From an uncultured Gemmatimonadota bacterium (GTDB taxonomy: Bacteria > JAAXHH01), in the NCBI GenBank assembly GCA_951812955.1, contig OX638340.1:2272001-2336000 (forward strand): a stretch of 64,000 nt of DNA. The letters run 5' to 3'. Below are positions 21,092 through 43,144 of this stretch, piece after piece. Position 1 is the stretch's first letter. Every line of letters starts with the position of its first letter. A program made the position numbers and the translations under genes. The notes under the pieces were generated by a model. The model had not been told where the DNA came from. It made no database searches and saw nothing but the letters and a program-made list of their open reading frames with translations.

Positions 21092-21266
21092 TATGGACTA
21101 CTTGATCCAGATGCAGCCTACAAATGGTTTTTCAACATCTGATTATGGACTACTTGACGCGACTGATTATGGACTACTTGTGATTATGTACCTTCTGTTC
21201 CAGACGCAGATTAAAATGGGTCCTGGACACGGTTATTCATACCTTCTGGACACGGTTATTCATACC
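21092..21266. repeat. Intergenic short direct repeats. TATGGACTACTTG occurs three times, and a 22-bp unit occurs twice; the second copy contains the stop codon of FtsX-1.
   Basis: The three-copy motif lies at about 21092, 21145 and 21169. The 22-bp copies ggacacggttattcatacct lie at 21221-21243 and 21245-21266. The minus-strand TAA of FtsX-1 is at 21256-21258. Confidence 0.85.
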
Positions 21267-23718: not shown

Positions 23719-23852
23719 GGCGGATCTCCAGCAGCTTAAAACGGGATTTCGTACAGGAAGCAGAAGCCACCCCAACCTTATGCGGACAATATAGTGTTCC
23801 CCTCGACTTTTCGGTACGACATTACAGGCGTAACGCGGCAACCAGGAGCACC

Positions 23853-27029: not shown

Positions 27030-29555
27030 CTACTGTTCCAACAGCATGAAGCTGGTCGTCCTGGTTGCGCGCTGCCCGGAATGCCGGTCCTCAAGCGTCA
27101 CCGCGAGCACATACACACCGGCCGTCAGGTCCGTGGTATCGATCGCCGTGTACTCGGCTTCCTCGGACGTATCGCCCTCGCCCTCATACGACAGAACGAC
27201 GGTCTGCAGGTCGCCGGACCGATCAACCGGACGGCCGCCCGTATCCGGCATGCCCTCGGGTTTGATCTCGTAGTAGGTCTGGTAGGAGGTCCGTCCCGCT
27301 TCGTCTCTGTCCAGGTTATAGATCTCGTAATACACGTACACCAACTGGCCCCGCCCATATGCGCGCAACGGATGCGGCACGATGTTCAGCCCTTTCCTGA
27401 CGAACGATCCGGTCTGGTCGGTCGGCGTTATACCGGTAGACATCTTGAGGCCGCTGATCATCAGATCGCGTCCCTGGTAATCGGGGATGGAAACCGGTTT
27501 CCTGTAGACGCCGATGCGCTGGGAGGTTTCATCCTGCATCTCCACGGCCGCCGTGAACTGTCCCGAAGGCACCAGGACATCGACGGCCAGCGTGTAGGCC
27601 GATACCCGGGCCTGTTCGGAGCTTATCATCCGCTTCGGCCGTTCGATGGGACCGAAGCGGAACTTCTGATTAAGCACCGGCTTGTTTACCGTATCGCGCA
27701 GCGTGGCCTGGTTTCTCAGGAAAGTTTCGTTTCCAAGGCCGTCGGTGACGTCTCCGAACTGCCAGACTGGAAGGCTGTAGACCAGTTCCATTACCGTTTT
27801 CTTGCCGTTCCCCCGGAAAGTGGTGATGTCGAAGGCATAGTCCAGGCCGTCGCCTCCGAAATCGTGCTCGTAGTCTTCCGGGCTACGCTCGATCAGCTGT
27901 TCGGCGATCCGCTGGGGATGATGCATTTCCTCCTTCTGAATTTCGTTGAATGCAGCGTTGTTATCGGGTTCCGTGGAGATCATCAGCGTGCGCAGGGGGT
28001 AGTCGAACCGGCCCCCTCCCATCTGGTCGACGAAGAACAATTCCATGTCGTGCGCCGCGTATACCCAGCTCTCCGACCTGTAAGACGGCCCCATCGCCCG
28101 TCTTTGAACGATCCTGGTTTCGTAGTTGACCTCGGATTGATCATTTAATGAAGACTCTTCTGTGGCTACGTTGTCCGCGGTGAGGTTGTTCACGGTCAGA
28201 AGTGATGCAGCGCCGAAGCCCGCGCGATTCTTCGTGTCCTGTTCCAGCTGGACGGACACCTGTCCCCGGTCCACTTTCAAGCGGTAACCGAACTGCCAGT
28301 TCTTTTCGCGAATGGCGTCCACGGCCGGATTGCCGGTGGGCATGTAGATATCTCTTGGGTCCTCGTATGAGCGGAAGAGAAACCGTCGGCGGTCGTCGGG
28401 CTCGCCATAGCGGACGTATATCTCCCCACGACGGTCGTAGGGGAACCGAGCCGAGGAAAAGTGTATACGTGCATACATCACCCGCTTGTAATGTTCGACC
28501 AGGCGTTCGTTCTCGACCGTGGCTGGATTCGGGTCCCGGGCATTCCAGAAGTCCTGCCACAACCTGTCGCGGGCCGGTCCTTTCGCGGCCTCCCAGGCCG
28601 CCAGCTCGTCGGGAGAAGCCACGTGGGCCAGGTCCCAGTAAATCTCCTGTTCCTCGGACTCAAGCCCCTTGATGTAGGTCTCCAGCGACCGCTGCAGCAG
28701 GTCGTACTGTTTCTTCGAACTCATGGACAGCGCTTCGAACTGCGTCAGCATGGTCCGGATCAGGTCGGGCGTGATACCCTCCATCTCCTCCGCCATCTTC
28801 CGGAGCTGTTCTGCGCCCCGCTCGTAATATTCGAACCGGTGACAGATGCCGGCGAATTTCCGAAGCGTCTCGGGATGGTCCGGATTGACCTGGTACTGTC
28901 TCAGGTAATTAGTCAGCGCCTTGATGTAGTCGTCGTAACGGTCCCTGACGCGCTTCCCGTGGTCCGCCAGCTTCAGTTCCTCGTAACAACGGCCGAGTTG
29001 ATAGAATGCGTCCGGATGCTCGGGATCCAATTCTACAGTCCGCTCAAAGTACGCCCGGCCATCCTGATGACTGCCGATCAGCCAGGCGGTATCGACCTGG
29101 TCCATGTACGTCAGGCCCATGATGTACTGGATCTGGGCGTTTTCGGGATCCAGTCTCATGGCGGTGCGCAACGCCTTCCGGGCATCGAGGCGCCGGTGCG
29201 GCATGCGATTGTATACGAGCCCCAGGCCCATATGGCCAGGTGCCCATTTCCTGTCTCTCCTGACCGCGTGCTTGAAGGCCTTGAGCGCTTCTGCGTCCCT
29301 GTTCAGTGCGAACAGGGCCATGCCGAGCCAGTAGTGGCCGGAAGCACTGTTCTTATTATCCAGTACCGCCTGCTGCAACGGAGGCAGCGCTTCACGGTAC
29401 ATGCCCAGTTCGTAGTAGCGTTTGCCTTCTTCAAGCGATGACTGGCTTGCCAGCCCTGCATCCGGCGGCAAGGCGGACTGGGCCTGCGAGCGACCGAATG
29501 GGACCCACACGGTCAGAATCAGTGCGGCGGTTGAAATGAAACGGAGTGTAGTCAT
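27030..29555 (-). CDS. Secreted TPR-repeat protein with a conserved C-terminal domain resembling the GWxTD family (TPR-1).
   Basis: The start is at the internal MTTLRFISTAALILTVWVPFGRSQAQ signal. It has about 6 TPR units (YWLGMALFAL..., YIMGLTYM...). The C-terminal domain contains FWNARDPNPATVENERLVEHYKRVMYARIHF...PYDRRGEIYVRYGEPDD. This matches the remembered GWxTD-domain pattern with the GWxTD residues substituted. Confidence 0.6.
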   Translation of the reverse strand: MTTLRFISTAALILTVWVPFGRSQAQSALPPDAGLASQSSLEEGKRYYELGMYREALPPLQQAVLDNKNSASGHYWLGMALFALNRDAEALKAFKHAVRRDRKWAPGHMGLGLVYNRMPHRRLDARKALRTAMRLDPENAQIQYIMGLTYMDQVDTAWLIGSHQDGRAYFERTVELDPEHPDAFYQLGRCYEELKLADHGKRVRDRYDDYIKALTNYLRQYQVNPDHPETLRKFAGICHRFEYYERGAEQLRKMAEEMEGITPDLIRTMLTQFEALSMSSKKQYDLLQRSLETYIKGLESEEQEIYWDLAHVASPDELAAWEAAKGPARDRLWQDFWNARDPNPATVENERLVEHYKRVMYARIHFSSARFPYDRRGEIYVRYGEPDDRRRFLFRSYEDPRDIYMPTGNPAVDAIREKNWQFGYRLKVDRGQVSVQLEQDTKNRAGFGAASLLTVNNLTADNVATEESSLNDQSEVNYETRIVQRRAMGPSYRSESWVYAAHDMELFFVDQMGGGRFDYPLRTLMISTEPDNNAAFNEIQKEEMHHPQRIAEQLIERSPEDYEHDFGGDGLDYAFDITTFRGNGKKTVMELVYSLPVWQFGDVTDGLGNETFLRNQATLRDTVNKPVLNQKFRFGPIERPKRMISSEQARVSAYTLAVDVLVPSGQFTAAVEMQDETSQRIGVYRKPVSIPDYQGRDLMISGLKMSTGITPTDQTGSFVRKGLNIVPHPLRAYGRGQLVYVYYEIYNLDRDEAGRTSYQTYYEIKPEGMPDTGGRPVDRSGDLQTVVLSYEGEGDTSEEAEYTAIDTTDLTAGVYVLAVTLEDRHSGQRATRTTSFMLLEQ

Positions 29556-29575
29556 GATCTCTATGTGATAAACCG

Positions 29576-29630
29576 GGTACGGTATGGCCTGCAAGGTACG
29601 GTGTAGCCCGCATGGTACGATATGGCCTGC
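29576..29630. repeat. Three tandem 19-bp direct repeats (GGTACGGTATGGCCTGC-like) about 20-75 nt upstream of the TPR-1 start.
   Basis: Copies lie at 29576-29592, 29595-29611 and 29614-29630, with 2-3 mismatches between them. Confidence 0.8.
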
Positions 29631-29704
29631 GAACAAACTGAACCGTCGATCAAAGCGGCTGTTTCCCCACACGTTCGGCGACGCGGGGAAGACCGAAGAA
29701 AGTC

Positions 29705-32125
29705 CTACCGTTCCATGACCAGGAAGTTGGCTGATTTGGAAACGGTACTTCCCGCGTGCAGGTCGGTAAGCCTGACAGTAAGTATATACTCACCCGCCGG
29801 CAGACCCGAAGTATCCAATGAAGTATACTCACGGTCCTCGGCTGAAGACCCTTCTCCCGCGAAGGCCATCATTACCGTCTGCATGTCTCTTTGCCTGCGG
29901 GCCGACCAGCCACGCCTTTCAGTAACCTCCAGGGGGCTGATCTCGTAGTGGAATTCGTACGCTGTTCTCTTCTCCCTGTCCAGGCTGAGGTTGTATATCT
30001 CGCAGTAAACGTAAACGGGGTTTCCCCGAAGGTAGAGCCGTCCCGGATTGGGCGTGATGTTCAATCCCTTGCGCACAAAGGGGCCCTGTACGCCTGTCGG
30101 AGCGATGATGGTGGCCAACTTGAGATCGCTGATGAGTAATTCTTCGCCGCTGTAATCAGACAGGGTGACTGGCTTGCGATACACTCCGATCCGGCTCGTC
30201 GTCTCGTCCTGCACCTGGACCGCCAGCGTGAAGCGTCCCGCCGGCGCCACGACGCTAGCGGGCAACGAATACACCGGGACATTCACTTGGCTTTCGGCCA
30301 TCGGCCCCTTCGGCCGGTCGAAGGGGCCGAAACCGAACTCGTGGGTGAACTGCGGGCTCATGGTCGAATCACGCAGGGTGACCAGGTGCGCGAGCCGGGT
30401 CCTGATCCCTCTGCCGTCCGACACCTCACCGAACTGCCATATGGGTATGCTGTAGGACAGATCCAGTTCCGTTGCACCGTTGTCCGCCCTGAAACTTACG
30501 GCGTCGAAGGCGTACTCGAGCGGCTCTCCGCCGTAGTCGTGCAGGTATTCCTCCGGGGCTTTGGCGATCAGTTCTTTGGCGAGCCGCCGGGGACTGAACC
30601 TTTCCTGCCGGGCCATCGCCTGCGGGTTGGTAAGCAGGTTGCCCTGGGGGTAATCGAATCGGCCCCCGCCGAACTGGTCGACGAAGAACAGTTCCAGGCC
30701 ATGCCGGACGTATACCCAGCTCTCGGTAGTGTATCCCGCACCCATTTCCTTTCTCTCCCTCTGCAGGTCAAAGACCGCGGATGATGCAACGATTCCGTCG
30801 GCCAGCGTTCCGCCAAGGGAGTCCAGTTCTGCTACAGTTACCCCCTCGGGCGGGACGATCGTCAAATTGCCCCGGTCGACACGCAATTGATAGCCAAACC
30901 GGTTATTCTGCTCTCGGATCGCGTCCACTGCCGCGTCATCGGAAATCGTAGCACTTTGATAGGCAATCCGATCTGCGTTATAGACGTTGCCGCGGCGGTC
31001 TTCCGGTTCACCGTAACGGACGTACATCTCGCCGCGGCGGTCATAGGGGTGCTGTCCCTGTGAAAAATGGTACCGGGCATACATTACGCGACGGTAATGC
31101 GCTACGAGGCGTTCGTTGGTCACGGTGGCGGGATTCGAATCCCTGGCATTCCAGAAGGCATGCCAGCGCGCATCGCGTTCGAGTCCGCCGGCTTCCTTCC
31201 AGGACGCCAGCTCGTCAGGAGTAGCCACGTGCGCCAGATCCCGGTAAACGCGCTGTTCGTCAGGGCCAAGAAGGGAAATGTACGTTTCAAAAATCCCATG
31301 CAGCACATCCGGCCGTGATTTCGAGTCTTCGGAAAGCGTGCTGAATTGCGTAAGCAGGGTCTGGACGATAGCTGAACCCGAATCTTCAAGTTCTGCTCCG
31401 GCATGTTCCAGTAACTCAACGGCCAGACCATACCTTTCGGAAAGAAGGGCCAGATAGACGAAACGGCCGAGTGCGTCGTAATGGCCGGGATTTACCTTGA
31501 ACTGCGAGATATATGCCGCCATCGCCTTGTCGAATTCGGGCGACTCGGGCCGTTCAAAACAACGGCCGATCTGAAAATACGCATCGGGATGGGAAGGATC
31601 CAATACCGCCGCTTTGAGGAAATAGTTCCGGCCGTCCCGGCCGCCACCCAGAATCCGGTCGGTCTTTCGCGGATTCATATGGGCGATTCCGATATGGTAC
31701 TGGATTTCCGGGTCGTCAGGCGCCAGCCTGGCCGCCATACGCAAGGCGTGACGCGCGTCCAGTCTTCGGTATTTCAACTGAATGTAGGACTTGCCCAGCC
31801 CCACGTAGCCTAACGCCAACTTCTCGTCCAGTTCGACTGAACGCTTGAACGAACTTACCGCCTTCCGGTATTGCTCCAACCCGTATTGAGCCATGCCGAG
31901 CCAGTAGTGGGCGGGCGCCGAACCCCCATCAGCCTCGACGGCCTGATTAAAGTACGGCAATGCTTCCGCGAACTTTTCCTGGTCGAATAGCGTCCGGCCC
32001 GCTTCCAGGGGAGTCCGCTGGCCGGTTTCAGCGACTGTATCCGTTGCGGAGGATTGGGCCTGTAGGCGACCCTGCATGAGTAAAACGAGCAGCACCGCTA
32101 CCAGAAGAACAGGGTATCTGGTCAT
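29705..32125 (-). CDS. Secreted TPR-repeat protein with a GWxTD-like C-terminal domain (TPR-2, paralog of 27030..29555).
   Basis: Signal peptide MTRYPVLLVAVLLVLLMQGRLQAQS, then TPR repeats. The C-terminal domain (FWNARDSNPATVTNERLVAHYRRVMYARYHF...PYDRRGEMYVRYGEPED) is co-linear with TPR-1. Confidence 0.6.
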   Translation of the reverse strand: MTRYPVLLVAVLLVLLMQGRLQAQSSATDTVAETGQRTPLEAGRTLFDQEKFAEALPYFNQAVEADGGSAPAHYWLGMAQYGLEQYRKAVSSFKRSVELDEKLALGYVGLGKSYIQLKYRRLDARHALRMAARLAPDDPEIQYHIGIAHMNPRKTDRILGGGRDGRNYFLKAAVLDPSHPDAYFQIGRCFERPESPEFDKAMAAYISQFKVNPGHYDALGRFVYLALLSERYGLAVELLEHAGAELEDSGSAIVQTLLTQFSTLSEDSKSRPDVLHGIFETYISLLGPDEQRVYRDLAHVATPDELASWKEAGGLERDARWHAFWNARDSNPATVTNERLVAHYRRVMYARYHFSQGQHPYDRRGEMYVRYGEPEDRRGNVYNADRIAYQSATISDDAAVDAIREQNNRFGYQLRVDRGNLTIVPPEGVTVAELDSLGGTLADGIVASSAVFDLQRERKEMGAGYTTESWVYVRHGLELFFVDQFGGGRFDYPQGNLLTNPQAMARQERFSPRRLAKELIAKAPEEYLHDYGGEPLEYAFDAVSFRADNGATELDLSYSIPIWQFGEVSDGRGIRTRLAHLVTLRDSTMSPQFTHEFGFGPFDRPKGPMAESQVNVPVYSLPASVVAPAGRFTLAVQVQDETTSRIGVYRKPVTLSDYSGEELLISDLKLATIIAPTGVQGPFVRKGLNITPNPGRLYLRGNPVYVYCEIYNLSLDREKRTAYEFHYEISPLEVTERRGWSARRQRDMQTVMMAFAGEGSSAEDREYTSLDTSGLPAGEYILTVRLTDLHAGSTVSKSANFLVMER

Positions 32126-32630
32126 GCCAAACCAACTTGTAGGGGGAAATGACGAAAAGAGATGGAACCTGCTTTAACAGATCCAGGTAATGCCTGCAAC
32201 CTACCCTTATTCGCGGCCACAGTCAAACAAAAGCGGCCTAATCTCGCCGCAGGGTGTCCGCCGGGTTGAGCATGGCGCTTCGGAAGGTATGCACGCTCAC
32301 GGTGAGCAGGGCGGTGGCCAGGACAACCAGTCCCGCCGCGACGAAAGGCGCAGCACCGATCTCCGTCCGGTAGGCGAAGTCCGCCAGCCACTCGTTCATG
32401 AGCCACCAGGCGGCCGGCCAGGCGAGGACGTTGCCGATCACCACGAGGACGACGAACTGCCTCGACAGCAGGCCGACTATATCTGAGACCGCGGCGCCCA
32501 TCACCTTGCGGATGCCGACTTCCCGCGTGCGGCGCGCGATGTCCAGCGACACGAGTCCATATACACCCAGGCAGGCGATCAGCAGGGCGAATACCGCGGA
32601 ATAGGTGAAAATGCGCGCAAGGTTGGCTTC
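31970..32630. repeat. Segment about 97% identical to 36903..37565. It covers the TPR-2 5-prime end, the intergenic region and the FtsX 3-prime end.
   Basis: Direct alignment of the two stretches shows only scattered mismatches across 660 bp. Divergence begins upstream of about 32630 and 37565. Confidence 0.85.
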
Positions 32631-34610
32631 ACCCTCGTAGAATCGGGCGATGTCGTCATCAAGGAAGGAATACTCGAAAAGCGATTCCGGGGCGATCTCC
32701 ATCCATGCCGCTCTCAACAGATCCAACGTGGCAGGCAGGTCCCGCCCGCTGACGCGTACCAGGAGGAAATTAACACCACCCTGGGTTTCCTCCCCGAAGG
32801 AAGCGGGATTCATCGTCAGGATTACCGGCTCTATTTCTTGATGCATCGACTGGTAGTGGTAGTCCTCCAACACGCCGATGACCGTATATCCGTGGGGCAG
32901 GGTCCGTCCGAGGGGGTCGTCCCATTCCATCACCCTGGCCGCGGCTTGGTTGATTATACATGACCCGGATTCGTCGTTGCCGAACTCCCGGGAAAAATCT
33001 CGTCCTGAGACCAGGTTCAGCTCTAGCGCCTTCACGTAATCGTAATCCACCGTGAACATATATGCTTCAAGCTTGTTCCCGTCCTTATCTGTATAGGCGG
33101 ACTGACCCAGGCCCCGACCGAAGGTGTTGGAAGCTCCCGTCACCAGGATTACGTTCTCATACGAGTTTATCCTGGATTTATAGACGTCCGCGGAGTTGGA
33201 ATTGGGCCCCATGTGGATGACGATGACGTTTTCCTTGTTGTATCCCAGATCTGTGTTCATGACGAAGTCCAACTGTCGGGTCATGACGAGTATGGAAACA
33301 ACGAGTAAGGCAGACAGGCCGAACTGGACGACCATCAGGCCGCGGATAACCAGGTTTGGGCTCCCGATCCGAACCTGATGTCTGAATACGGCAACGGGAT
33401 TGAAACGGGAGAGGATCAGGGCGGGATAGCTCCCGGACGCCAGGGCAACCAGGCCAGTCAACACTAGTAGCGCGGCGATCGTAGAGCCGTTGGAGAGATA
33501 ATCTAGGACGTATGAGCTTCCCGCCAGCGTGTTGAATACAGGAAGAAACAGGTGGGCCAGGATAACGCCTAAGATGAGGGCGAAGCAACTCAACACCGCG
33601 GTCTCACCCAGGAACTGTTTCATGATCTGGGTTTTCTGCGCACCGAACACCTTCCGCAGTCCAACCTCCCTGGCGCGCGAAGACGATCGGCAGAAGGCCA
33701 GGTTCATGAAATTCACGCAGGCGATGAAAAGAACGAAAAGCGCCGTGCAAATCAGTATGTAAGACCTGTTGGGATCGCTCGTGGTACCCTGGCCAAACCT
33801 CACACCCTGAGCAAGATACATGTCCGTTAAAGGCTGCAATTCCAGGTATGGCGATCCCATCTGTGAAAAATGAGTCTCGACAAAACCCGGCAACTGGTTT
33901 TCAAGCATGTCTGCCATTTCCGGATCCGACAGCTCGACGTAGGTTGAGGAGACACTGTAGTTCCAATTGCCGATCGCCTGATTCGTCCAGTTGTCGATAG
34001 CAAACATTTTGTCGAAGGGGATCAGGAAATCGAACCGTATGCTGGAATTAACCGGAGTGTTCTCTGCTACCCCGGCCACCAAAAACGGTTCACCTCGTAT
34101 CGTGAGTTGCCTGCCCAGGGGGCTTCCCGTCCCAAAATACTTCTCGGCGGCGGACTGGCTGATCACCACCGAGTTCAGTTCGTTCAGGACCGTCCCGGGA
34201 TCACCTTCGATCAATGGGAAGGAGAACACGCTGAATATCGATGGATCGCTATACAGAACGTGTTCTTCCCGGAACACATCATTACCAACACGGACTTCCG
34301 CCCCTCCGGTGGTTCGTATTCGCACGGTCTGTTCGACGCCGGGATACTGTTCCTTAAAGGCAGCGGCAAGTGGAAGAGGGGTAATCCCACTGGTATATAA
34401 GTTATCCTCGAAACCTGATCCACCGACGTTGACCCGGTAGATCCGGTCCGCCTTCTCGTGAAAGGCGTCGTAGGTCCACTCCTGGCGCACGAAGAGAAAT
34501 ACGAGGAGGCTGCAGGCGATGCCGGTGGACAGGCCCAGCGTGTTGATGAAGAAGTAGCCCTTGTTGCCGAACAGGTGCCGAAACGCGATGACAAGGTGGT
34601 TTTTCAGCAT
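32238..34610 (-). CDS. ABC-transporter FtsX/MacB-type permease (FtsX-2).
   Basis: 790 aa beginning MLKNHLVIAFRHLFGNKGYFFINTLGLSTGIACSLLVFLFV.... It has two FtsX blocks. Its last roughly 130 aa are identical to FtsX-3. Confidence 0.85.
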   Translation of the reverse strand: MLKNHLVIAFRHLFGNKGYFFINTLGLSTGIACSLLVFLFVRQEWTYDAFHEKADRIYRVNVGGSGFEDNLYTSGITPLPLAAAFKEQYPGVEQTVRIRTTGGAEVRVGNDVFREEHVLYSDPSIFSVFSFPLIEGDPGTVLNELNSVVISQSAAEKYFGTGSPLGRQLTIRGEPFLVAGVAENTPVNSSIRFDFLIPFDKMFAIDNWTNQAIGNWNYSVSSTYVELSDPEMADMLENQLPGFVETHFSQMGSPYLELQPLTDMYLAQGVRFGQGTTSDPNRSYILICTALFVLFIACVNFMNLAFCRSSSRAREVGLRKVFGAQKTQIMKQFLGETAVLSCFALILGVILAHLFLPVFNTLAGSSYVLDYLSNGSTIAALLVLTGLVALASGSYPALILSRFNPVAVFRHQVRIGSPNLVIRGLMVVQFGLSALLVVSILVMTRQLDFVMNTDLGYNKENVIVIHMGPNSNSADVYKSRINSYENVILVTGASNTFGRGLGQSAYTDKDGNKLEAYMFTVDYDYVKALELNLVSGRDFSREFGNDESGSCIINQAAARVMEWDDPLGRTLPHGYTVIGVLEDYHYQSMHQEIEPVILTMNPASFGEETQGGVNFLLVRVSGRDLPATLDLLRAAWMEIAPESLFEYSFLDDDIARFYEGEANLARIFTYSAVFALLIACLGVYGLVSLDIARRTREVGIRKVMGAAVSDIVGLLSRQFVVLVVIGNVLAWPAAWWLMNEWLADFAYRTEIGAAPFVAAGLVVLATALLTVSVHTFRSAMLNPADTLRRD

Positions 34611-34686
34611 GATCGTTTTGCCTCCTGTCGCTTACGAGCTGTAAGCCGGAAAACGTTCCTGAGGAAACACGATCTTGGAATGGCAA

Positions 34687-34719
34687 AGGGGATCTACGGT
34701 TTCGACCCGTCGATCCCCT
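34687..34719. other. Hairpin with an 8-bp stem (AGGGGATC / GATCCCCT) and a 17-nt loop, between Big_2-1 and FtsX-2. It is repeated at 39617-39649 with a 9-bp stem.
   Basis: Sequence aggggatctacggtttcgacccgtcgatcccct. There is no strong U-tract, so it could be a weak terminator for the Big_2 gene or a regulatory element for the FtsX gene. Confidence 0.35.
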
Positions 34720-34779
34720 GAAAAGTTGCATGTTGGTAACTATTGCGATGCCGGAACTTACGTAGTGCATTCCCGACTG

Positions 34780-36381
34780 TCAGTCAACGACAAACGTGTT
34801 TTCACTACGGCGAAAACTCCTATCATCGCCAAACGAAACATCATAAACCAGTCTATACTCACCGGCGACTTCCGGATCGTATGGGCAAGCGTCGAATTCC
34901 ACCCGTGTGGCCTCGATGTCTTCCCATGTACTGCCCATATCGTCGCTTCGCTGCCATACGGAGTAATGGACCGTCATGGGGATACCTAACGGCTGAGTTG
35001 GGTAGTTGTTTAGTTCAGCACGAAAGAGTGAACTTGCACAGTATTCTATAGTTATAGGAGTATATCCTGGTCCCGTGAATATCAACTTACCGGGCTCGAC
35101 CTTCCAACCTTCCCACGGGACATAGACTATCTCGTCGACTGGCTCGTCGACGCCTTCGCCGCCATCCCCGCCATCCCCGCCTTCACCACCTTCCCCTTCA
35201 GTCGGAACCATGACCGTGATACTCACCATGGCCGACACGTCGCCGGACGCGGCCGTGACTACGGCCATGCCGTTGCCCACCGCTTCTACCAATCCATCCT
35301 CGTCCACGGTGATCACGTTTTCGTCACCGCTCGTCCACGTGACGGCCGGTTCGGCAATGGCATTGTCGTTCCCGTCGCTGACGGAAACCATGAGTTGCAG
35401 GGTCTGTTCGATCTCGGTCAGCGTGGTGGCATCGGGTGCGACCTCGATGCTGATGCCGGCCGGAACCTGGGCGACGGTGATCGACGCAGTCCCCATAGCG
35501 TCTCCGGCCTGTGCCGTGATCTCCGCCATGCCGTTGTCCACCGCGGTCACAAGCCCGTTCTCGTCCACGGTGGCCACGGCGTCATCGGCGCTTGACCAGG
35601 TCACCATCACGTCCTCCATCGCGTTTTCGTGCTGGTCCAGCACGACGGCCGCGAGTTCCACGGTGTCGCCGATCGCTTCCAGCGTGTGCGCAGCGGGCTC
35701 GATCGTCAGGCTCGTCGGCACGGATACGGATACCGTGATGGACGCACTGGCGGACAGGCTGCCGGATGTGGCCGTGATCTCAGCCATCCCGTTACTCACC
35801 GCCGTTACAAGGCCCGCCCCGCTCACGGTCGCCACGGCGTCGTCGCCGCTCGACCAGGTGATGGACTGGCCGGACATGATGTTGTTCCGCTGATCCCGCA
35901 CCGTAGCCGACAACTGTACCGTTTCCCCGATCGCCTTCAGCGTATGGGACGTCGGTGCGACCGTGATCCGGGTCGGCACCGGCTCGGCCACCGTGATGTT
36001 CGCAGTGCCCGTCGCGTTGCCGGACTGCGCCCTTATTTGCGCGGCGCCGTTGGCCACGGCCGTCACCAGGCCATTTCCGCTGACAGTCGCCACCGCGGTA
36101 TTGCTGCTCGACCAAGTCACCGCCTGGCCGGTCATCGGATTGTTGTTCTGGTCCCTCACCATGGCCATCAGTTGCACGGTCGCGCCAATCGTCGCCAGCG
36201 TGTGCGAAGACGGCGTGACAGAAATGCTCGTCGCAACGGGCGCAGGCGGTGGAGCAGGCGGGGTCGGTGTGGACGGCTCGGGACTCGTCGGGCTGCTGTC
36301 CCCGCCACCGCATCCCGCCAGAAAAACCAGGTACAAGGATGCCGTGATCTTGGCGAACACGCGACTGTATGGACCAAACAC
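34780..36381 (-). CDS. Surface lipoprotein with four Big_2 (bacterial Ig-like group 2) domains, a Gly/Glu/Asp linker and an unclassified roughly 125-aa Cys-containing C-terminal domain (Big2-1).
   Basis: GTG start with an AAGGAG ribosome-binding site. It begins MFGPYSRVFAKITASLYLVFLAGCGGGDSS (lipobox), followed by a Pro/Thr linker. Four repeats carry the Big_2 signature (..TVQL.A.V.DQ.NN.M.GQ..TWSS....VATV...GLVTAV.NG.A.I.A..). The C-terminal domain reads VPWEG...CASSL...VHYSVWQRSDDMGSTWEDIE...DACPY.PEVAGEYRLV. Confidence 0.8.
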   Translation of the reverse strand: MFGPYSRVFAKITASLYLVFLAGCGGGDSSPTSPEPSTPTPPAPPPAPVATSISVTPSSHTLATIGATVQLMAMVRDQNNNPMTGQAVTWSSSNTAVATVSGNGLVTAVANGAAQIRAQSGNATGTANITVAEPVPTRITVAPTSHTLKAIGETVQLSATVRDQRNNIMSGQSITWSSGDDAVATVSGAGLVTAVSNGMAEITATSGSLSASASITVSVSVPTSLTIEPAAHTLEAIGDTVELAAVVLDQHENAMEDVMVTWSSADDAVATVDENGLVTAVDNGMAEITAQAGDAMGTASITVAQVPAGISIEVAPDATTLTEIEQTLQLMVSVSDGNDNAIAEPAVTWTSGDENVITVDEDGLVEAVGNGMAVVTAASGDVSAMVSITVMVPTEGEGGEGGDGGDGGEGVDEPVDEIVYVPWEGWKVEPGKLIFTGPGYTPITIEYCASSLFRAELNNYPTQPLGIPMTVHYSVWQRSDDMGSTWEDIEATRVEFDACPYDPEVAGEYRLVYDVSFGDDRSFRRSENTFVVD

Positions 36382-36463
36382 TGCTGTCTCCTTTCGGCTA
36401 ATTACTGAAAAGCGGTTCGTTGTAATCTACCGTTCTTGATCTCGATGAACAGATTATCTGACT

Positions 36464-37057
36464 TCATGCACGCAGGCCCTTCATACTCTCCCGGGCCGCT
36501 TCGAGGGTCCGGTCGATGTCTTCTTCGGTATGGGCCAGGGACACAAACCCCGTTTCAAGGCGCGAAGGCGCCAGGTAGACGCCCCGGTCCAGCATATTCC
36601 AGAAGTATCGCCCGTACGTATCCGCGTCTGACGTGGAAGCTGCATCGAAATTGTTGACGGTCTGATCTGTGAAGAAGGTACACATCATGGAGCCCACACG
36701 GGTCAGGCAGGCCGGGACGCCGGCCGCTTCCGCCGCGGCGCGAAGGCCGTCGCCGAGGCGGGCGGCCAGGGATTCCAGCCGGTCGTAGACCCCGGGTTCC
36801 TGAAGCTGCCGCACCGTTTCATATCCAGCGGTCATGGCAAGCGGATTGCCGGACAGCGTGCCGGCCTGGTAAACCTCACCGGCGGGCGCCACGGTTTCCA
36901 TGAACTTTTCCTGGTCGAATAGCGCACGTCCCGCTTCCAGGGGAGTCCGCTGGCCGGTTTCAGCGACTGTATCATCTGCGGTGGATTGGGCCTGGAGGCG
37001 ACCCTGCATGAGAAAAACGAGCAGGACCGCTACCAGAAGTACAGGGTATCTGGTCAT
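36464..37057 (-). pseudogene. Chimeric in-frame ORF. The TPR-2-type promoter, ribosome-binding site and signal peptide (50 codons) are fused to the C-terminal 147 codons of hemL. It is the junction product of the tandem segmental duplication.
   Basis: The N-terminus MTRYPVLLVAVLLVFLMQGRLQAQSTADDTVAETGQRTPLEAGRALFDQEKF equals the start of the 29705..32125 gene. The remainder, METVAPAGEVYQAGTLSGNPLAMTAGYETV...MKGLRA, equals the end of the 41855..43144 hemL gene. The breakpoint is at about 36903. Confidence 0.7.
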
Positions 37058-37169
37058 GGCAAACCAACTCGTAGGGGGAAATGACGGAAAGAAATGGAAC
37101 CTGCTTTAACATATGCAGGTAATGCCTGCAACCTACCCTTATTCGCGGCCTCAGTCAAACAAATGCGGC

Positions 37170-39541
37170 CTACTCGCTCCGCAGGGTGTCCGCCGGGTTG
37201 AGCATAGCGCTTCGGAAAGTATGCACGCTCACGGTGAGCAGGGCGGTGGCCAGGACAACTAGTCCCGCCGCGACGAAAGGCGCAGCACCGATCTCCGTCC
37301 GGTAGGCGAAGTCCGCCAGCCACTCGTTCATGAGCCACCAGGCGGCCGGCCAGGCCAGGACGTTGCCGATCACCACGAGGACGACGAACTGCCTCGACAG
37401 CAGGCCGACTATATCTGAGACCGCGGCGCCCATCACCTTGCGGATGCCGACTTCCCGCGTGCGGCGCGCGATGTCCAGCGACACGAGTCCATATACGCCG
37501 AGGCAGGCGATCAGCAGGGCGAATACCGCGGAATAGGTGAAAATCAGCGCCAGGTTGTTCTCATCCTGGTAGAACCGTTCTATATCGTCTTCCATGAAGA
37601 AATACTCGTAGGGCGTCTCAGGCGCTGTCCCCTTCCACGCGTCCTCGAGCAGGGAAAGCGTGGTTGGCAGATCCCTGCCGCTGACCCGGACCAGGAGGAA
37701 GCCGTAACTGACCGAAGTGTTACCCATGGATGTGGGATTGAGGGAGAGTATAATCGGATCGATCTCCTGGTGCAGCGACTGGAAATGGAAGTCCTTGACT
37801 ACGCCGATTACCGTATACCCATGGGGCAGTTTGCGCCCGATCGGATCTTCCCATTCCAGCTTCTTTGCCGCGGCCTCGTTGATGATGCACGATTGGAACT
37901 CGTCGTTTACGAATTCGCTGGAAAAATCACGGCCACGGACGAGGTTCAGTTCAAGCGTCTCCAGGTAATCGCGGTCCACGGTCGCCATGAACGCTTCCAG
38001 CTTGTTTCCGTCCGGTCGGTGTAGGCAACCTGGGGCAAGAAATGCCCCTGACCAAAGGTGCTGGAAGTGCCGGAAACCAGGAGTATGTCTTCGTACGGTA
38101 TCACTTTGCTGCGAAAGATCTCCAGGTCGTTTGAATTGAAGGGGGCCTGGATGACTACCACGTTGTGCGGGTTGAACCCCAAATCCCCCGTCCGCACAAA
38201 GTCCAGCTGCCGGGTCATGATGAGAATTGAAATGACGAGCAACGCGGACAACCCGAACTGCACGACCATCAAGCCGCGCACGAAGAGATTCGGCCCTCCG
38301 ATCTGAACCTGTTGCCGGAAGATGGTGACGGGGTTGTAGTGTGAGAGCACCAGGGAAGGATAACTGCCGGAAACCAGGGCGACCAGCACGGTCAAACCCG
38401 TCAGCGCGGCCAGCGTGGATCCGTTCGTCAGGTAGTCCAGCACGAGGGACTTTCCCGCCAGCATATTGAAAACCGGAAGGAACAGGTGGGCCAGGGCCAC
38501 GCTCAGCACCAGGGCGAAGCAGCACAGCGCCGCGGTTTCGCCCAAGTGCTGTCCCATGATCTGGGTTCGGCGCGCGCCGTAAACTTTCCTGACACCGACC
38601 TCTTTCACACGCGAAGACGAACGGCAGACGGCCAGGTTCATGAAGTTGACGCAGGCGATGAATAGTACGAGCAGCGCCGTGCAAATCAGGATGTAGGACC
38701 GGTTGGGATCGCTGGTGGGACCCAGCCCGAATTTGACTTCCTGATCCAGGTAGATATCGGTGATGGGTTGCAGGATCAGATAGGGCGACGAGTAGGCCGG
38801 GAAATGGGTTTCGACGAATTCCGGCAGTTGACTGAGGAGCGATTCTACTCGATCCGGATCCCCGAGTTCGATGAAAGTGGCCGTGGACGAATAGTTCCAC
38901 TTTCCGATGGCATTCGATATCCAGGGGTTTATTTCCGGCGCCTTGTCAAAGGGTATGAGCAGGTCGAACCGAATACTGGAGTTATCCGGTCCGTTCTCCG
39001 CGACGCCGGTTACGGTCAGCGGAATGCCCTGTACCAGGAGCGTCCTGCCCGTCGGAGACTCCTGGCCGAAGTACTTCGCCGCGGCGGATTTGCTGACGAC
39101 CACTGAATTCGCCTCGCCGAGGGCCGTACCGGGATCGCCTTCGATCATCGTGAAGGAGAACATCTCGAAGAAGGACGGATCGCAGAAAAGGGCGTTCTCC
39201 TTGCGGAACGTATCTTCTCCGATGCGAATATCGGATGGATATTCCGTTATGCGCACGGTCCGGACCACGTCGGGATATTGCTGCTCCAGGGTAGCCGCGA
39301 GCGGGAGGGGAGTTCTCGCGCTTATGAACGGGTTGTCGTCGAAATCCACTCCACCGGCTGCGACCTGGTAGATCCGGTCCGATTTCTCGTGGAAGGCGTC
39401 GTAGGTCCACTCGTGGCGGACGAAGAGAAAGATCAGGAGGCAGCACGCGATACCGGTCGACAGGCCAAAAGTATTGATGAAGAAATAACCCTTGTTGGCG
39501 AACAGGTACCGCAACGCGATGACGAGGTTGTTTTTCACCAT
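37170..39541 (-). pseudogene. FtsX/MacB-type permease paralog (FtsX-3) disrupted by a single-nucleotide deletion near 38012.
   Basis: The N-terminal 531-aa ORF (37946..39541) and the C-terminal ORF (37170..38900) overlap in different frames. Restoring one G in cgggac (expected AYTDRDGNKLEA, as in FtsX-2 AYTDKDGNKLEA) gives a continuous roughly 790-aa protein. This could be a real pseudogene or a homopolymer sequencing error. Confidence 0.7.
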
Positions 39542-39708
39542 GATCGTATTGCCTCCTGTCGCTTACGCATGCAAGCAGGAAAACGCACCTGGGGAAAGAC
39601 GATCCTGCAATGGCAAAGGGGATCTACGGTTTCGACCCGTCGATCCCCTTAAAGGTTGCATGTTGGTAACTATTGCGATTGGGAACTTACGTTGTGCATT
39701 CCTGACTG

Positions 39709-41772
39709 TCAGGGGATGACAAACGTATTCTCACTACGGCGAAAACTCCTATCATCGTCAAGCGAAATATCACCAACCAGTCTATACTCACCGGCGACTT
39801 CCGGATTGTATGGGCAAGCGTCGAATTCCACCCGTGTGTCCTCGATGTCTTCCCATGTACTGCCCATATCGTCGCTTCGCTGCCATACGGAGTAATGGAC
39901 CGTAATGGTGACACCTAACGGAGTTGGGCGGTTGTTTAGTTCTCCACCTAAGAGTGAACTTGCGCAGTTTACTATAGGTATTGTAGCAAGTCCTGGGACC
40001 GTAAAAACCAACCGACCGGGCTCGACCCGCACACCTTCCCACGGGACGTAGGTGACTTCATCCACCGTAATGGTCACCGTGATGCTCACCATGGCCGACA
40101 CGTCGCCGGACGCGGCCGTAACTTCGGTCATGCCGTTGCCCACAGCTTCTACCAACCCATCCTCGTCCACGGTGACCACGTTCTCGTCACCGCTCGTCCA
40201 CGTGACGGCCGGTTCGGCAATGGCATTGTCGTTCCCGTCGCTGACGGAAACCATGAGTTGCAGGGTCTGTTCGATCTCGGTCAGCGTGGTGGCATCGGGT
40301 GCGACCTCGATGCTGATGCCGGCCGGAACCTGGGCGACGGTGATCGACGCAGTCCCCATAGCGCCTCCGGCCTGGGCCGTGATCTCCGCCATGCCGTTGT
40401 CCACCGCGGTGACCACGCCGTTCTCGTCCACGGTGGCCACGGCGTCGTCGCCGCTCGACCAGGTCACCATCACGTCCTCCATCGCGTTTTCGTGCTGGTC
40501 CAGTACGACGGCCGCGAGTTCCACGGTGTCGCCGATCGCTCCCAGCGTGTGCGCGGCTGGCTCGATCGTGATGCTCGTTGCCACGGGCTCGGATATCACC
40601 ATGACCGTGATACTCACCATGGCCGATACGTCGCCGGATGCGGCCGTAACTGCGGCCATGCCGTTCCCCACCGCTTCTACCAAACCATCCTCGTCCACGG
40701 TGGCCACGTTTTCGTCACCGCTCGTCCACGTGACGGCCGGTTCGGCAATGGCATTGTCGTTCCCGTCGCTGACGGAAACCATGAGTTGCAGGGTCTGTTC
40801 GATCTCGGTCAGCGTGGTGGCATCGGGTGCGACCTCGATGCTGATGCCGGCCGGAACCTGGGCGACGGTGATCGACGCAGTCCCCATAGCGTCTCCGGCC
40901 TGTGCCGTGATCTCCGCCATGCCGTTGTCCACCGCGGTCACAAGCCCGTTCTCGTCCACGGTGGCCACGGCGTCATCGGCGCTTGACCAGGTCACCATCA
41001 CGTCCTCCATCGCGTTTTCGTGCTGGTCCAGCACGACGGCCGCGAGTTCCACGGTGTCGCCGATCGCTTCCAGCGTGTGCGCAGCGGGCTCGATCGTCAG
41101 GCTCGTCGGCACGGATACGGATACCGTGATGGACGCACTGGCGGACAGGCTGCCGGATGTGGCCGTGATCTCAGCCATCCCGTTACTCACCGCCGTTACA
41201 AGGCCCGCCCCGCTCACGGTCGCCACGGCGTCGTCGCCGCTCGACCAGGTGATGGACTGGCCGGACATGATGTTGTTCCGCTGATCCCGCACCGTAGCCG
41301 ACAACTGTACCGTTTCCCCGATCGCCTTCAGCGTATGGGACGTCGGTGCGACCGTGATCCGGGTCGGCACCGGCTCGGCCACCGTGATGTTCGCAGTGCC
41401 CGTCGCGTTGCCGGACTGCGCCCTTATTTGCGCGGCGCCGTTGGCCACGGCCGTCACCAGGCCATTTCCGCTGACAGTCGCCACCGCGGTATTGCTGCTC
41501 GACCAAGTCACCGCCTGGCCGGTCATCGGATTGTTGTTCTGGTCCCTCACCATGGCCATCAGTTGCACGGTCGCGCCAATCGTCGCCAGCGTGTGCGAAG
41601 ACGGCGTGACAGAAATGCTCGTCGCAACGGGCGCAGGCGGTGGAGCAGGCGGGGTCGGTGTGGACGGCTCGGGACTCGTCGGGCTGCTGTCCCCGCCACC
41701 GCATCCCGCCAGAAAAACCAGGTACAAGGATGCCGTGATCTTGGCGAACACGCGACTGTATGGACCAAACAC
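39709..41772 (-). CDS. Surface lipoprotein with six Big_2 domains and a diverged copy of the same C-terminal domain (Big2-2).
   Basis: The first roughly 410 aa are identical to Big2-1. Two extra Big_2 domains from an internal tandem duplication (about 40060-40600 versus 40600-41160) follow. The C-terminal domain is about 75% identical to that of Big2-1. Confidence 0.8.
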   Translation of the reverse strand: MFGPYSRVFAKITASLYLVFLAGCGGGDSSPTSPEPSTPTPPAPPPAPVATSISVTPSSHTLATIGATVQLMAMVRDQNNNPMTGQAVTWSSSNTAVATVSGNGLVTAVANGAAQIRAQSGNATGTANITVAEPVPTRITVAPTSHTLKAIGETVQLSATVRDQRNNIMSGQSITWSSGDDAVATVSGAGLVTAVSNGMAEITATSGSLSASASITVSVSVPTSLTIEPAAHTLEAIGDTVELAAVVLDQHENAMEDVMVTWSSADDAVATVDENGLVTAVDNGMAEITAQAGDAMGTASITVAQVPAGISIEVAPDATTLTEIEQTLQLMVSVSDGNDNAIAEPAVTWTSGDENVATVDEDGLVEAVGNGMAAVTAASGDVSAMVSITVMVISEPVATSITIEPAAHTLGAIGDTVELAAVVLDQHENAMEDVMVTWSSGDDAVATVDENGVVTAVDNGMAEITAQAGGAMGTASITVAQVPAGISIEVAPDATTLTEIEQTLQLMVSVSDGNDNAIAEPAVTWTSGDENVVTVDEDGLVEAVGNGMTEVTAASGDVSAMVSITVTITVDEVTYVPWEGVRVEPGRLVFTVPGLATIPIVNCASSLLGGELNNRPTPLGVTITVHYSVWQRSDDMGSTWEDIEDTRVEFDACPYNPEVAGEYRLVGDISLDDDRSFRRSENTFVIP

Positions 41773-41854
41773 TGCTGTCTCCTTTCGGCTAATTACTGAA
41801 AAGCGGTTCGTTGTAATCTACCGTTCTTGATCTCGATGAACAGATTATCTGACT

Positions 41855-43144
41855 TCATGCACGCAGGCCCTTCATACTCTCCCGGGCCGCTTCGAGGGTC
41901 CGGTCGATGTCTTCTTCGGTATGGGCCAGGGACACAAACCCCGTTTCAAGGCGCGAAGGCGCCAGGTAGACGCCCCGGTCCAGCATATTCCAGAAGTATC
42001 GCCCGTACGTATCCGCGTCTGACGTGGAAGCTGCATCGAAATTGTTGACGGTCTGATCTGTGAAGAAGGTACACATCATGGAGCCCACACGGGTCAGGCA
42101 GGCCGGGACGCCGGCCGCTTCCGCCGCGGCGCGAAGGCCGTCGCCGAGGCGGGCGGCCAGGGATTCCAGCCGGTCGTAGACCCCGGGTTCCTGAAGCTGC
42201 CGCACCGTTTCATATCCAGCGGTCATGGCAAGCGGATTGCCGGACAGCGTGCCGGCCTGGTAAACCTCACCGGCGGGCGCCACGGTTTCCATGATTTCCC
42301 TGCGACCGCCATAGGCCCCCACGGGAAGTCCTCCCCCGATGATCTTGCCCAGGCAGGTCATGTCGGCCGAGATGCCGAATCGTTCCTGCGCTCCGCCGAA
42401 TGCGATCCTGAATCCCGTGATGACCTCGTCAAAAATCAGAATGATCCCCCGCTTCTCCGTCTCTTCCCGAATGGTTTCGAGAAAGCCTTCGGCCGGAGGG
42501 ATCATGCCCATGTTGCCGGCGACCGGCTCTACGATCACGCAGGCGACGTCGCCGCCCCGCTCCGCCAGGGTGCGCCGGACGGCCTCGACGTCGTTGTAGG
42601 GTAGATTGATGGTCATCTTCGCCAGGTCCGCAGGCACGCCGGGACTGTCGGGGATGCCGAATGTCGCGGCGCCGGAACCGGCCTGGATGAGAAAGCTGTC
42701 TCCGTGGCCGTGGTATCCCGCCTCGAATTTGACCGCCAGGTCGCGCCCCGTGTATCCGCGGGCGACGCGCAGGGCGCTCATGGTCGCTTCCGTGCCGGAG
42801 TTGACCATGCGTATCAGGTCGATGGACGGGAAGGCGGTCCTGACCAGTTCCGCCAGCCTGATCTCGGCTTCGGTGGGCGTGCCGAAACTCGTACCCCGTT
42901 CACAGGCCTTCTTCAGGGCCTCGACCACGGCGGGATGGCCGTGGCCCAGGATCAGCGGTCCCCAGGATCCCAGGTAATCGATGTACTCGTTGCCGTCCAC
43001 GTCGTAGACCCTGGAACCCGCGCCCCGGTCCATGAAGACGGGGCTTCCTCCAACCCGCCCGAAATTCCGCACGGGGCTGTTCACCCCGCCGGGCATGGAT
43101 CGCTGGGCCTGGTCGAAGAGGGTACTGGATCGGGAACGGTTCAT
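41855..43144 (-). CDS. hemL: Glutamate-1-semialdehyde 2,1-aminomutase.
   Basis: 429 aa. MNRSRSSTLFDQAQRSMPGGVNSPVR...GSWGPLILGH... is an aminotransferase class III protein with the typical HemL N-terminus. Confidence 0.9.
   Translation of the reverse strand: MNRSRSSTLFDQAQRSMPGGVNSPVRNFGRVGGSPVFMDRGAGSRVYDVDGNEYIDYLGSWGPLILGHGHPAVVEALKKACERGTSFGTPTEAEIRLAELVRTAFPSIDLIRMVNSGTEATMSALRVARGYTGRDLAVKFEAGYHGHGDSFLIQAGSGAATFGIPDSPGVPADLAKMTINLPYNDVEAVRRTLAERGGDVACVIVEPVAGNMGMIPPAEGFLETIREETEKRGIILIFDEVITGFRIAFGGAQERFGISADMTCLGKIIGGGLPVGAYGGRREIMETVAPAGEVYQAGTLSGNPLAMTAGYETVRQLQEPGVYDRLESLAARLGDGLRAAAEAAGVPACLTRVGSMMCTFFTDQTVNNFDAASTSDADTYGRYFWNMLDRGVYLAPSRLETGFVSLAHTEEDIDRTLEAARESMKGLRA

Follow-up and report, generated by a model that had tools for sequence, protein, structure and literature searches.

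Tandem duplications can create chimeric genes at their join points, a textbook source of new genes. To our knowledge, the bacterial examples are mainly short-lived laboratory variants. In the Salmonella join-point fusions associated with Anderson and Roth in the 1970s, the joint is said to place a gene's 3' part under the signals of a different gene, and the duplications are reportedly unstable, with copies that recombine. In Staphylococcus aureus, short-junction (SJ) tandem duplications of 1.2-1.9 kb create nusG'-'sigH and rplK'-'sigH, fusions that set the initial 42-50 codons of the downstream gene, together with its start signals, in frame with the upstream gene while the parents stay intact (Morikawa et al. 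2012, PMC3486894). Chimeric genes have also been described at the boundaries of tandem duplications in Drosophila populations (Rogers et al. 2014, PMC4069613). Here we analyse a natural open reading frame (ORF) of this type, TPR'-'hemL, in a 64,000-nt stretch of DNA from an uncultured Gemmatimonadota bacterium (contig OX638340.1, forward-strand positions 2,272,001 to 2,336,000; hereafter the window, numbered from its first nucleotide). The ORF joins the start of a gene with TPR repeats to the 3' part of hemL, and it is probably the old join-point scar of a short-junction tandem duplication and not a new working gene.

Results

Anatomy of the fusion

The chimeric ORF (36464-37057, minus strand) encodes 197 aa from an ATG start and has no internal stops in the ORF list. 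Its first 52 codons (36902-37057, minus strand) are TPR-derived and specify a Sec-type-looking start, MTRYPVLLVAVLLVFLMQGRLQAQS..., followed by a short linker; they match the beginning of the gene TPR-2 (31970-32125) at 48 of 52 amino acids and ~93% of nucleotides. The remaining 145 codons and the stop codon (36464-36901, minus strand) come from hemL. Chimera residues 53-197 are 100% identical to HemL residues 285-429, the C-terminal domain, and the underlying DNA is the same as that at 41855-42292. A three-way alignment of the junction with its hemL and TPR parents placed the join point at a 2-nt microhomology (36902-36903), where the letters TC on the plus strand are the sole overlap between the parents. 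The coding strand reads ...GAAAAGTTC/ATGGAAACC... across the join, linking codon 52 of the TPR/GWxTD gene in frame to codon 285 of hemL and giving the peptide ...FDQEKF-METVAP... (junction peptide ...ALFDQEKFMETVAPAGEVYQAGTLSGNPLAMTAGYETVR). The initial annotation had proposed an in-frame chimera without a stop at a duplication junction, and the ORF list and the alignments to both parents agree on this. Those alignments, to hemL and to the TPR-2 N-terminus, also fix the fusion codon (TPR 52, hemL 285) and shorten the hemL portion from the proposed C-terminal 147 residues to 145.

Both parents are whole and lie on the outer flanks of a repeat array. The hemL gene (41855-43144, minus strand) encodes 429 aa and scores 620 bits against the NCBIfam profile TIGR00713 (cut-off 527.3), with E=8e-166 to PDB 3k28. 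TPR-2 (29705-32125, minus strand) encodes 806 aa with TPR repeats and a GWxTD domain. When the window was compared with itself, the chimera junction proved to be the exact meeting point of two head-to-tail direct repeats with nothing between them. Unit A (31970-36901, minus strand; 4,932 bp) comprises the hemL' part of the chimera, a Big_2 lipoprotein gene of 533 aa (34780-36381, minus strand), an ADOP/MacB-type permease of 790 aa that we call alpha (32238-34610, minus strand) and the first 156 nt of TPR-2. Unit B (36902-42292, minus strand; 5,391 bp) comprises the last 438 nt of the real hemL, a Big_2 gene of 687 aa (39709-41772, minus strand), the permease pseudogene beta (37170-39541, minus strand) and the TPR' part of the chimera. 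The order on the coding (minus) strand is hemB, hemL, Big_2 (687 aa), a frameshifted MacB/FtsX ADOP-like permease, the chimera, Big_2 (533 aa), permease (790 aa), TPR-2 and TPR-1.

Mosaic identity of the repeat units

Identity between the two units is uneven. A perfectly identical tract of 1,588 nt (35314-36901 = 40705-42292), covering the hemL tail, an 82-nt spacer and the first ~1.07 kb of Big_2, stops exactly at the join. The TPR' part and its leader are 92-93% identical between the units, the permease 3' end 97-99% and the permease body 53-85%; the 3' parts of the Big_2 genes have diverged, with a 459-bp length difference and six versus four Big_2 domains. The joint itself is asymmetric, its TPR' side being ~7% diverged from the parent and its hemL' side 0%. 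The simplest reading would be that the join is old and that gene conversion has recently homogenised its hemL/Big_2 side; conversion must end at the join, since homology stops there. The initial annotation had described a clean example of gene fusion by tandem duplication, implying a recent event in this genome. That reading is contradicted by the mosaic identity, which runs from 100% down to ~55-75% over the permease genes, by the synonymous divergence (dS) of 0.91 between the permeases, and by the occurrence of the junction in diverged genomes reported below.

The divergence of permeases alpha and beta is on par with that of orthologues from different species. Because their dS of 0.91 is accompanied by a ratio of non-synonymous to synonymous divergence (dN/dS, omega) of 0.22, the two must have diverged as functional genes. 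Beta carries a 1-nt deletion near 38013, at a site outside any long homopolymer, which leaves ORFs of 531 and 576 aa; after repair of the deletion it has 790 codons and no further stop. A search for close relatives of beta, either as a donor or as a sign of a three-unit array, gave best matches of 78-79% amino-acid identity and none above 79%.

The junction in other assemblies

A protein search with the chimera returned a 100% match on a 3.81 Mb contig, presumably the source, together with a 197-aa protein that shares 90% identity along its entire length, a version of 146 aa and two more cluster members (195 and 197 aa). Exact-protein look-ups with the chimera, hemL and TPR-2 gave no contig. 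The identical nucleotide junction is present in a further six contigs, each under its own assembly accession (L001, L002, L003, L086, L087 and L088), all of them ENA assemblies reached through the protein search. These contribute four further sequence variants (197, 197, 195 and 146 aa) beside that of the window, or five variants in seven assemblies in total. L001 is 39 kb long, L002 and L003 are ~2 kb each with short-read style names, and L086, L087 and L088 are 8-11 kb with long-read style names. The whole array is present in L001, in the order hemB-hemL-Big_2-permease-chimera-Big_2-permease-TPR-TPR-M29. Since the identical joint recurs in other assemblies and L001 holds the whole array, the junction is real and not peculiar to the window's assembly. 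The permease upstream of the chimera, of type alpha in these contigs, is intact in L001 and L086 and broken in L087 and L088. Exact and codon-degenerate scans of JGI metagenome contigs did not find the junction, and none of the species-representative genomes within reach carries it, the scan giving only full-length hemL matches.

The single-copy order hemB-hemL-Big_2-permease-TPR was found in six relatives (L004 and L007-L011). In the closest relative, L006 (APA_bin_41), hemB and hemL are 94-96% identical to the window in nucleotide sequence and the contig ends inside Big_2. Some relatives are Gemmatimonadetes bacterium metagenome-assembled genomes, such as SB0665_bin_8, and we take these bins to come from sponges. 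The database also holds 122-123-aa 'hypothetical proteins' that match the chimera because hemL is split into overlapping ORFs in L004 (9130-10372; 295 and 123 aa) and L005 (8835-10369; 389 and 122 aa), either by sequencing frameshifts or by real disruptions. L006 has an insertion of ~1 kb (1867-2892) between hemL and Big_2, with opposite-strand ORFs of 71 and 74 aa, where the window has the 82-nt spacer. TPR-1 (27030-29672, minus strand) and TPR-2 of the window form an older tandem pair of TPR and GWxTD genes at ~45% amino-acid identity; the pair is kept in L001, L004, L007 and L010, and in L008, L009 and L011 the fetched flanks showed only one TPR gene.

Probable origin and lateral movement of the unit

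The hemL part of all chimeras is 87-94% identical to the window hemL and 86-92% identical to that of L006, and in L001 and L087 it is only 77-82% identical to their own resident hemL. In the genomes with a diverged backbone, the chimera's hemL portion matches the window hemL at 89-94% and the resident gene at only ~80%. In a tree, the chimeras interleave with the functional hemL genes of the window and L006. The TPR part of the L001 chimera is 94% identical to that of the window chimera, compared with 75% for L001's own TPR gene. Since both halves of every chimera are of the window type, we infer that the join was made once, in the past, in the window's lineage.

Between the window and L001 the backbone is well diverged, with dS values of 0.64 for hemB, 0.69 for the 5' part of hemL, 0.54 for the TPR-2 body and 0.58 for TPR-1. 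The corresponding values in the unit are 0.17 for permease alpha, 0.15 for the first 350 codons of the downstream Big_2 gene and 0.32 for the hemL' part. Because the unit is so much less diverged than the backbone (dS 0.15-0.32 versus 0.54-0.69), these values would require the unit to have been exchanged laterally between species-level lineages. In L001, the window-like stretch corresponds exactly to a single circularly permuted unit, permease alpha - TPR'/hemL' - Big_2, whose two edges lie in one conserved Big_2/permease spacer. Alpha occupies the downstream position in the window and the upstream position in L001 and L086-88. An excised circle that integrated by a single crossover, replacement within an array already present and differential loss from a longer ancestral array would all give these patterns.

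We also asked whether the chimera had converted the real hemL, which might show as a step at the hemL breakpoint in the identity between the window and L006; the 3' part was somewhat more diverged, with no clear boundary. In L086 (8450-8730), the resident TPR gene combines a window-type (chimera-type) 5' coding region with a group-specific upstream region, a pattern that suggests gene conversion between the TPR' part of the chimera and the real TPR gene.

Coding capacity of the chimera

TIGR00713 matched chimera residues 48-193 at profile positions 276-421 with 172.5 bits, which does not reach the cut-off of 527.3, and Pfam Aminotran_3 was matched in the C-terminal part of the profile only. 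The lysine that binds pyridoxal phosphate (PLP), Lys267 in the CLGK motif of the parent, lies upstream of the breakpoint, and the HemL fragment begins at Met285. With the PLP lysine and the N-terminal two thirds absent, the chimera cannot be a HemL enzyme. An AlphaFold2 (AF2) model gave a predicted local distance difference test (pLDDT) score of >90 for residues ~72-197, the HemL C-terminal domain, and <50 for residues 1-64; this confidence mirrors the hemL alignment, and the model was used for domain boundaries and not as evidence of function.

Compared pairwise between chimeras, the hemL part gave dN/dS values of 0.14-0.26, rising to 0.34-0.53 in pairs with the deleted variant described below, and functional hemL genes gave 0.08-0.22. 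Most differences between chimeras are states that are also present in functional hemL genes, and we explain the low pairwise values by the inheritance of such differences from functional hemL alleles. We counted singletons, that is, changes private to one sequence, within the close clade only; this count replaced an all-sequence count of private states (p=0.10) that was biased by synonymous saturation. The chimeras had 15 non-synonymous and 7 synonymous singletons compared with 7 and 20 in functional hemL (Fisher p=0.004), and the 15:7 ratio is compatible with a neutral 3:1 expectation (p=0.46). Chimera-private replacements fall at positions that are invariant or near-invariant among ~115 HemL homologues (G302A, M356I, A340T, V366L and M285I). 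The L002/L003 chimera has a 153-nt in-frame deletion that takes out 51 residues of the domain core, and in the L087/L088 chimera the 3' end has been replaced.

Only 2.8% of single substitutions in the chimeric ORF create a stop, and an open frame is therefore expected by chance; after 20-40 neutral changes the probability of its being open is ~0.3-0.5. From these data we conclude that the hemL part appears to drift neutrally while in the chimera, its apparent conservation being inherited from functional hemL by conversion or recent descent. The suggestion in the initial annotation that the ORF is a non-functional by-product is most probably right, given the missing Lys267, the sub-cut-off hemL score and the neutral singleton ratio.

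Leader and N-terminus

The 112-nt leader that separates the permease stop from the ATG of the chimera (37058-37169, minus strand) is a copy of the region upstream of TPR-2 (32126-32237) and is ~93% identical to it. In the 125 nt ahead of the ATG, of which 13 nt are the end of the permease gene, the window differs from L001 at 1 position and from L087 at 3. The chimera had been credited with the promoter and the ribosome-binding site of TPR-2. Neither was recovered: no Shine-Dalgarno (SD)-like motif was found in the 30 nt before the ATG, where the permease, Big_2, HtrA and other window genes have AGGAG, and a scan of the leader found no sigma-70-like promoter or terminator. An Rfam search of the 112-nt leader gave no match, and on folding it was not unusually structured. 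Translation of the chimera is nevertheless possible, since TPR-2, the parent gene, has this SD-less leader too, and transcription of the chimera may be no more than read-through from the permease upstream of it.

A Sec (SPase I) signal peptide is expected to have a positive n-region, a hydrophobic h-region of ~10-15 residues and small residues at -1/-3 of the cleavage site. Judged by inspection only, a plausible fit to this pattern divides the N-terminus into MTR / YPVLLVAVLLVFLM / QGRLQA-QS, and this layout is conserved in TPR orthologues. The AF2 model has a low-confidence helix at residues 5-21. Were the chimera transcribed, by read-through or from a TPR promoter, and also translated, it would yield a HemL C-terminal domain of ~170 aa, targeted to Sec and with no expected activity.

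Neighbouring genes

The two Big_2 genes (34780-36381 and 39709-41772, minus strand) are probable lipoproteins with a LAGCGG lipobox, seen by inspection. They contain internal repeats of ~520 bp that are 65-80% identical, and their domain number would therefore vary by recombination between these repeats; Big_2 lengths in the relatives are 529-634 aa. Long ORFs of 158-410 aa run antisense over both genes (35210-36440 and 40052-41830, plus strand) and are most likely artefacts of GC-rich repetitive coding sequence and not genes.

The permease beside Big_2 is hypervariable across the clade, where alpha, beta, gamma and other types are 70-77% identical in nucleotide sequence with dS 0.7-1.0 and omega ~0.2. 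In contrast, the hemL proteins of the same clade are at least 90% identical. A further duplicated permease of the MacB_PCD/FtsX kind, 867 aa long with a TTG start (21256-23859, minus strand), has a GC content of 0.51 against ~0.62 around it; this permease, in its low-GC stretch at 21-24 kb, may have been laterally acquired. Other low-GC patches of the window lie at 3-4 kb and 16-17 kb.

Discussion

A join-point scar accounts well for the anatomy of the chimera and for its neutral pattern of change, and several observations weigh against it. The 125-nt leader is almost invariant among the chimeras, and all five variants keep the open frame, the start codon and the signal-peptide-like N-terminus. 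Purifying selection on a product would give the same low pairwise dN/dS. The singleton test is based on only 22 changes in the chimeras and 27 in hemL, and both gene conversion and the direction of transfer are read from patterns of identity. Given the conserved leader and N-terminus, the confident AF2 prediction of residues ~72-197 as a complete domain, the pairwise omega of 0.14-0.26, the frame that is open across seven assemblies and the spread of the carrier unit between species, the chimera might be a real new gene, in which the TPR leader exports a stand-alone HemL C-terminal domain and selection keeps the ORF open for a periplasmic or surface role, maybe tied to the downstream Big_2 lipoprotein and ADOP permease. 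We consider this unlikely. The changes private to the chimeras occur at the neutral 15:7 ratio and strike (near-)invariant HemL residues; one variant (L002/L003) lacks 51 residues of the core and another (L087/L088) has a replaced C-terminal end. An open frame is expected by chance, the AF2 confidence stems from the hemL alignment and not from the chimera, hemL' in this genome is simply a converted copy of hemL, and the ORF, unlike the neighbouring genes, has no SD motif.

A simple tandem duplication that arose recently in this same genome and left the fusion as a fresh by-product would explain why the 1,588-nt perfect tract ends at the junction and why the geometry is exactly head to tail. 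It is very improbable, as the rest of the units are 55-93% identical with permeases at dS 0.91 and omega 0.22, the TPR' side of the junction is already ~7% off its parent, and the identical joint occurs in other species-level lineages whose flanks, at dS 0.5-0.7, exclude the same strain. An artefact, either a chimeric read or two co-occurring strains misassembled in series, might be suspected from the resemblance of the units to alleles of different strains and from the apparent origin of the chromosome by metagenome assembly. We regard it as extremely improbable: the same junction is embedded in differing surrounding sequence in seven assemblies that, judging by contig names, used different assemblers and read types; a 2-nt overlap is too short to mislead an assembler; and the overall array layout is the same in L001, with the partial contigs L086, L087 and L088 consistent with it. 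The lateral movement of the unit could also reflect a cassette system, in which units are excised as circles, transferred and re-integrated by a single crossover, shuffling Big_2 and permease alleles among co-resident symbionts and leaving TPR'-'hemL as the scar of circle closure. The single circularly permuted unit in L001 with both edges in the same Big_2/permease spacer, the three- to fourfold lower divergence of the unit than of the backbone, the hypervariable permease family and the different positions of permease types between genomes (alpha downstream in the window, upstream in L001 and L086-88) are what such a system would produce. However, no recombinase or other mobility gene was found nearby and no circles were observed; ordinary homologous replacement in an existing array, or differential loss from an array of at least three units, gives the same pattern; two array configurations were sampled; and the proposal concerns the array and not the function of the ORF. 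We hold it to be improbable. A bolder version, quite unlikely in our view, would make the ~5 kb unit (permease - TPR'-'hemL - Big_2) a recombination-driven cassette whose circles are swapped among symbiont species and diversify an Ig-like surface lipoprotein and an ADOP-type permease, the chimera being the circle-closure joint and perhaps even encoding a retained exported HemL-domain protein.

The join-point scar that we favour can be given a history. An ancestor of the window's lineage would have had the order hemB-hemL-Big_2-permease-TPR. An illegitimate join at the 2-nt microhomology would then have tied the TPR/GWxTD gene at codon 52 to hemL at codon 285, duplicating the ~5 kb between them and leaving both parents whole, and the resulting array would have been remodelled by homologous recombination. 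In this genome, the 1,588 nt of hemL tail and Big_2 5' part would recently have been homogenised between the copies by gene conversion, and the upstream permease would be the divergent allele beta, now frameshifted. A circularly permuted unit of permease alpha, chimera and Big_2 would have passed into related species. The frame would stay open since few substitutions in a GC-rich frame create stops and since the hemL part is periodically overwritten by, or descended from, functional hemL; carriage with a transferred unit would add to this persistence.

The locus thus offers a natural joint that can be traced across several genomes and that would illustrate how a scar ORF can persist open over the long term without selection on its product. 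It also carries a warning: a fragment that is homogenised against a functional paralogue can show open frames, low pairwise dN/dS and 'conservation' from one assembly to the next, and each of these can pass for a sign of function. Compared with the fusion ORF, the hypervariable Big_2/ADOP-permease cassette, with its lateral exchange, probably holds the more interesting biology.

Compared with the described systems, the chimera is a natural instance of the known join-point fusion type: its anatomy matches, and function is not indicated. Like the S. aureus SJ fusions, it sets the 5' end of a downstream gene on the 3' part of an upstream one by way of very short repeats, with the parents kept. 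The S. aureus fusion, however, carries nearly the whole of SigH, is expressed as judged by western blot, is selected and reverts; the fusion described here carries only the last third of an enzyme, which leaves no possibility of catalysis. Its microhomology is 2 nt compared with 7-8 nt in S. aureus, and the join is old and common to several species, whereas the S. aureus fusion is a transient laboratory variant. The Salmonella duplications were likewise laboratory-selected and short-lived, in contrast to that of the window, which persists in natural populations with diverged copies. As in the Drosophila case, tandem duplication of partial genes yields chimeric ORFs, most of which are considered neutral or deleterious by-products; that case is eukaryotic and is not known to involve the operon context, the conversion with a housekeeping parent and the lateral transfer described here. 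Measured against HemL itself (glutamate-1-semialdehyde 2,1-aminomutase; TIGR00713; PDB 3k28 and 2gsa), the chimera has the C-terminal domain without residues 1-284, behind a foreign signal-peptide-like N-terminus.

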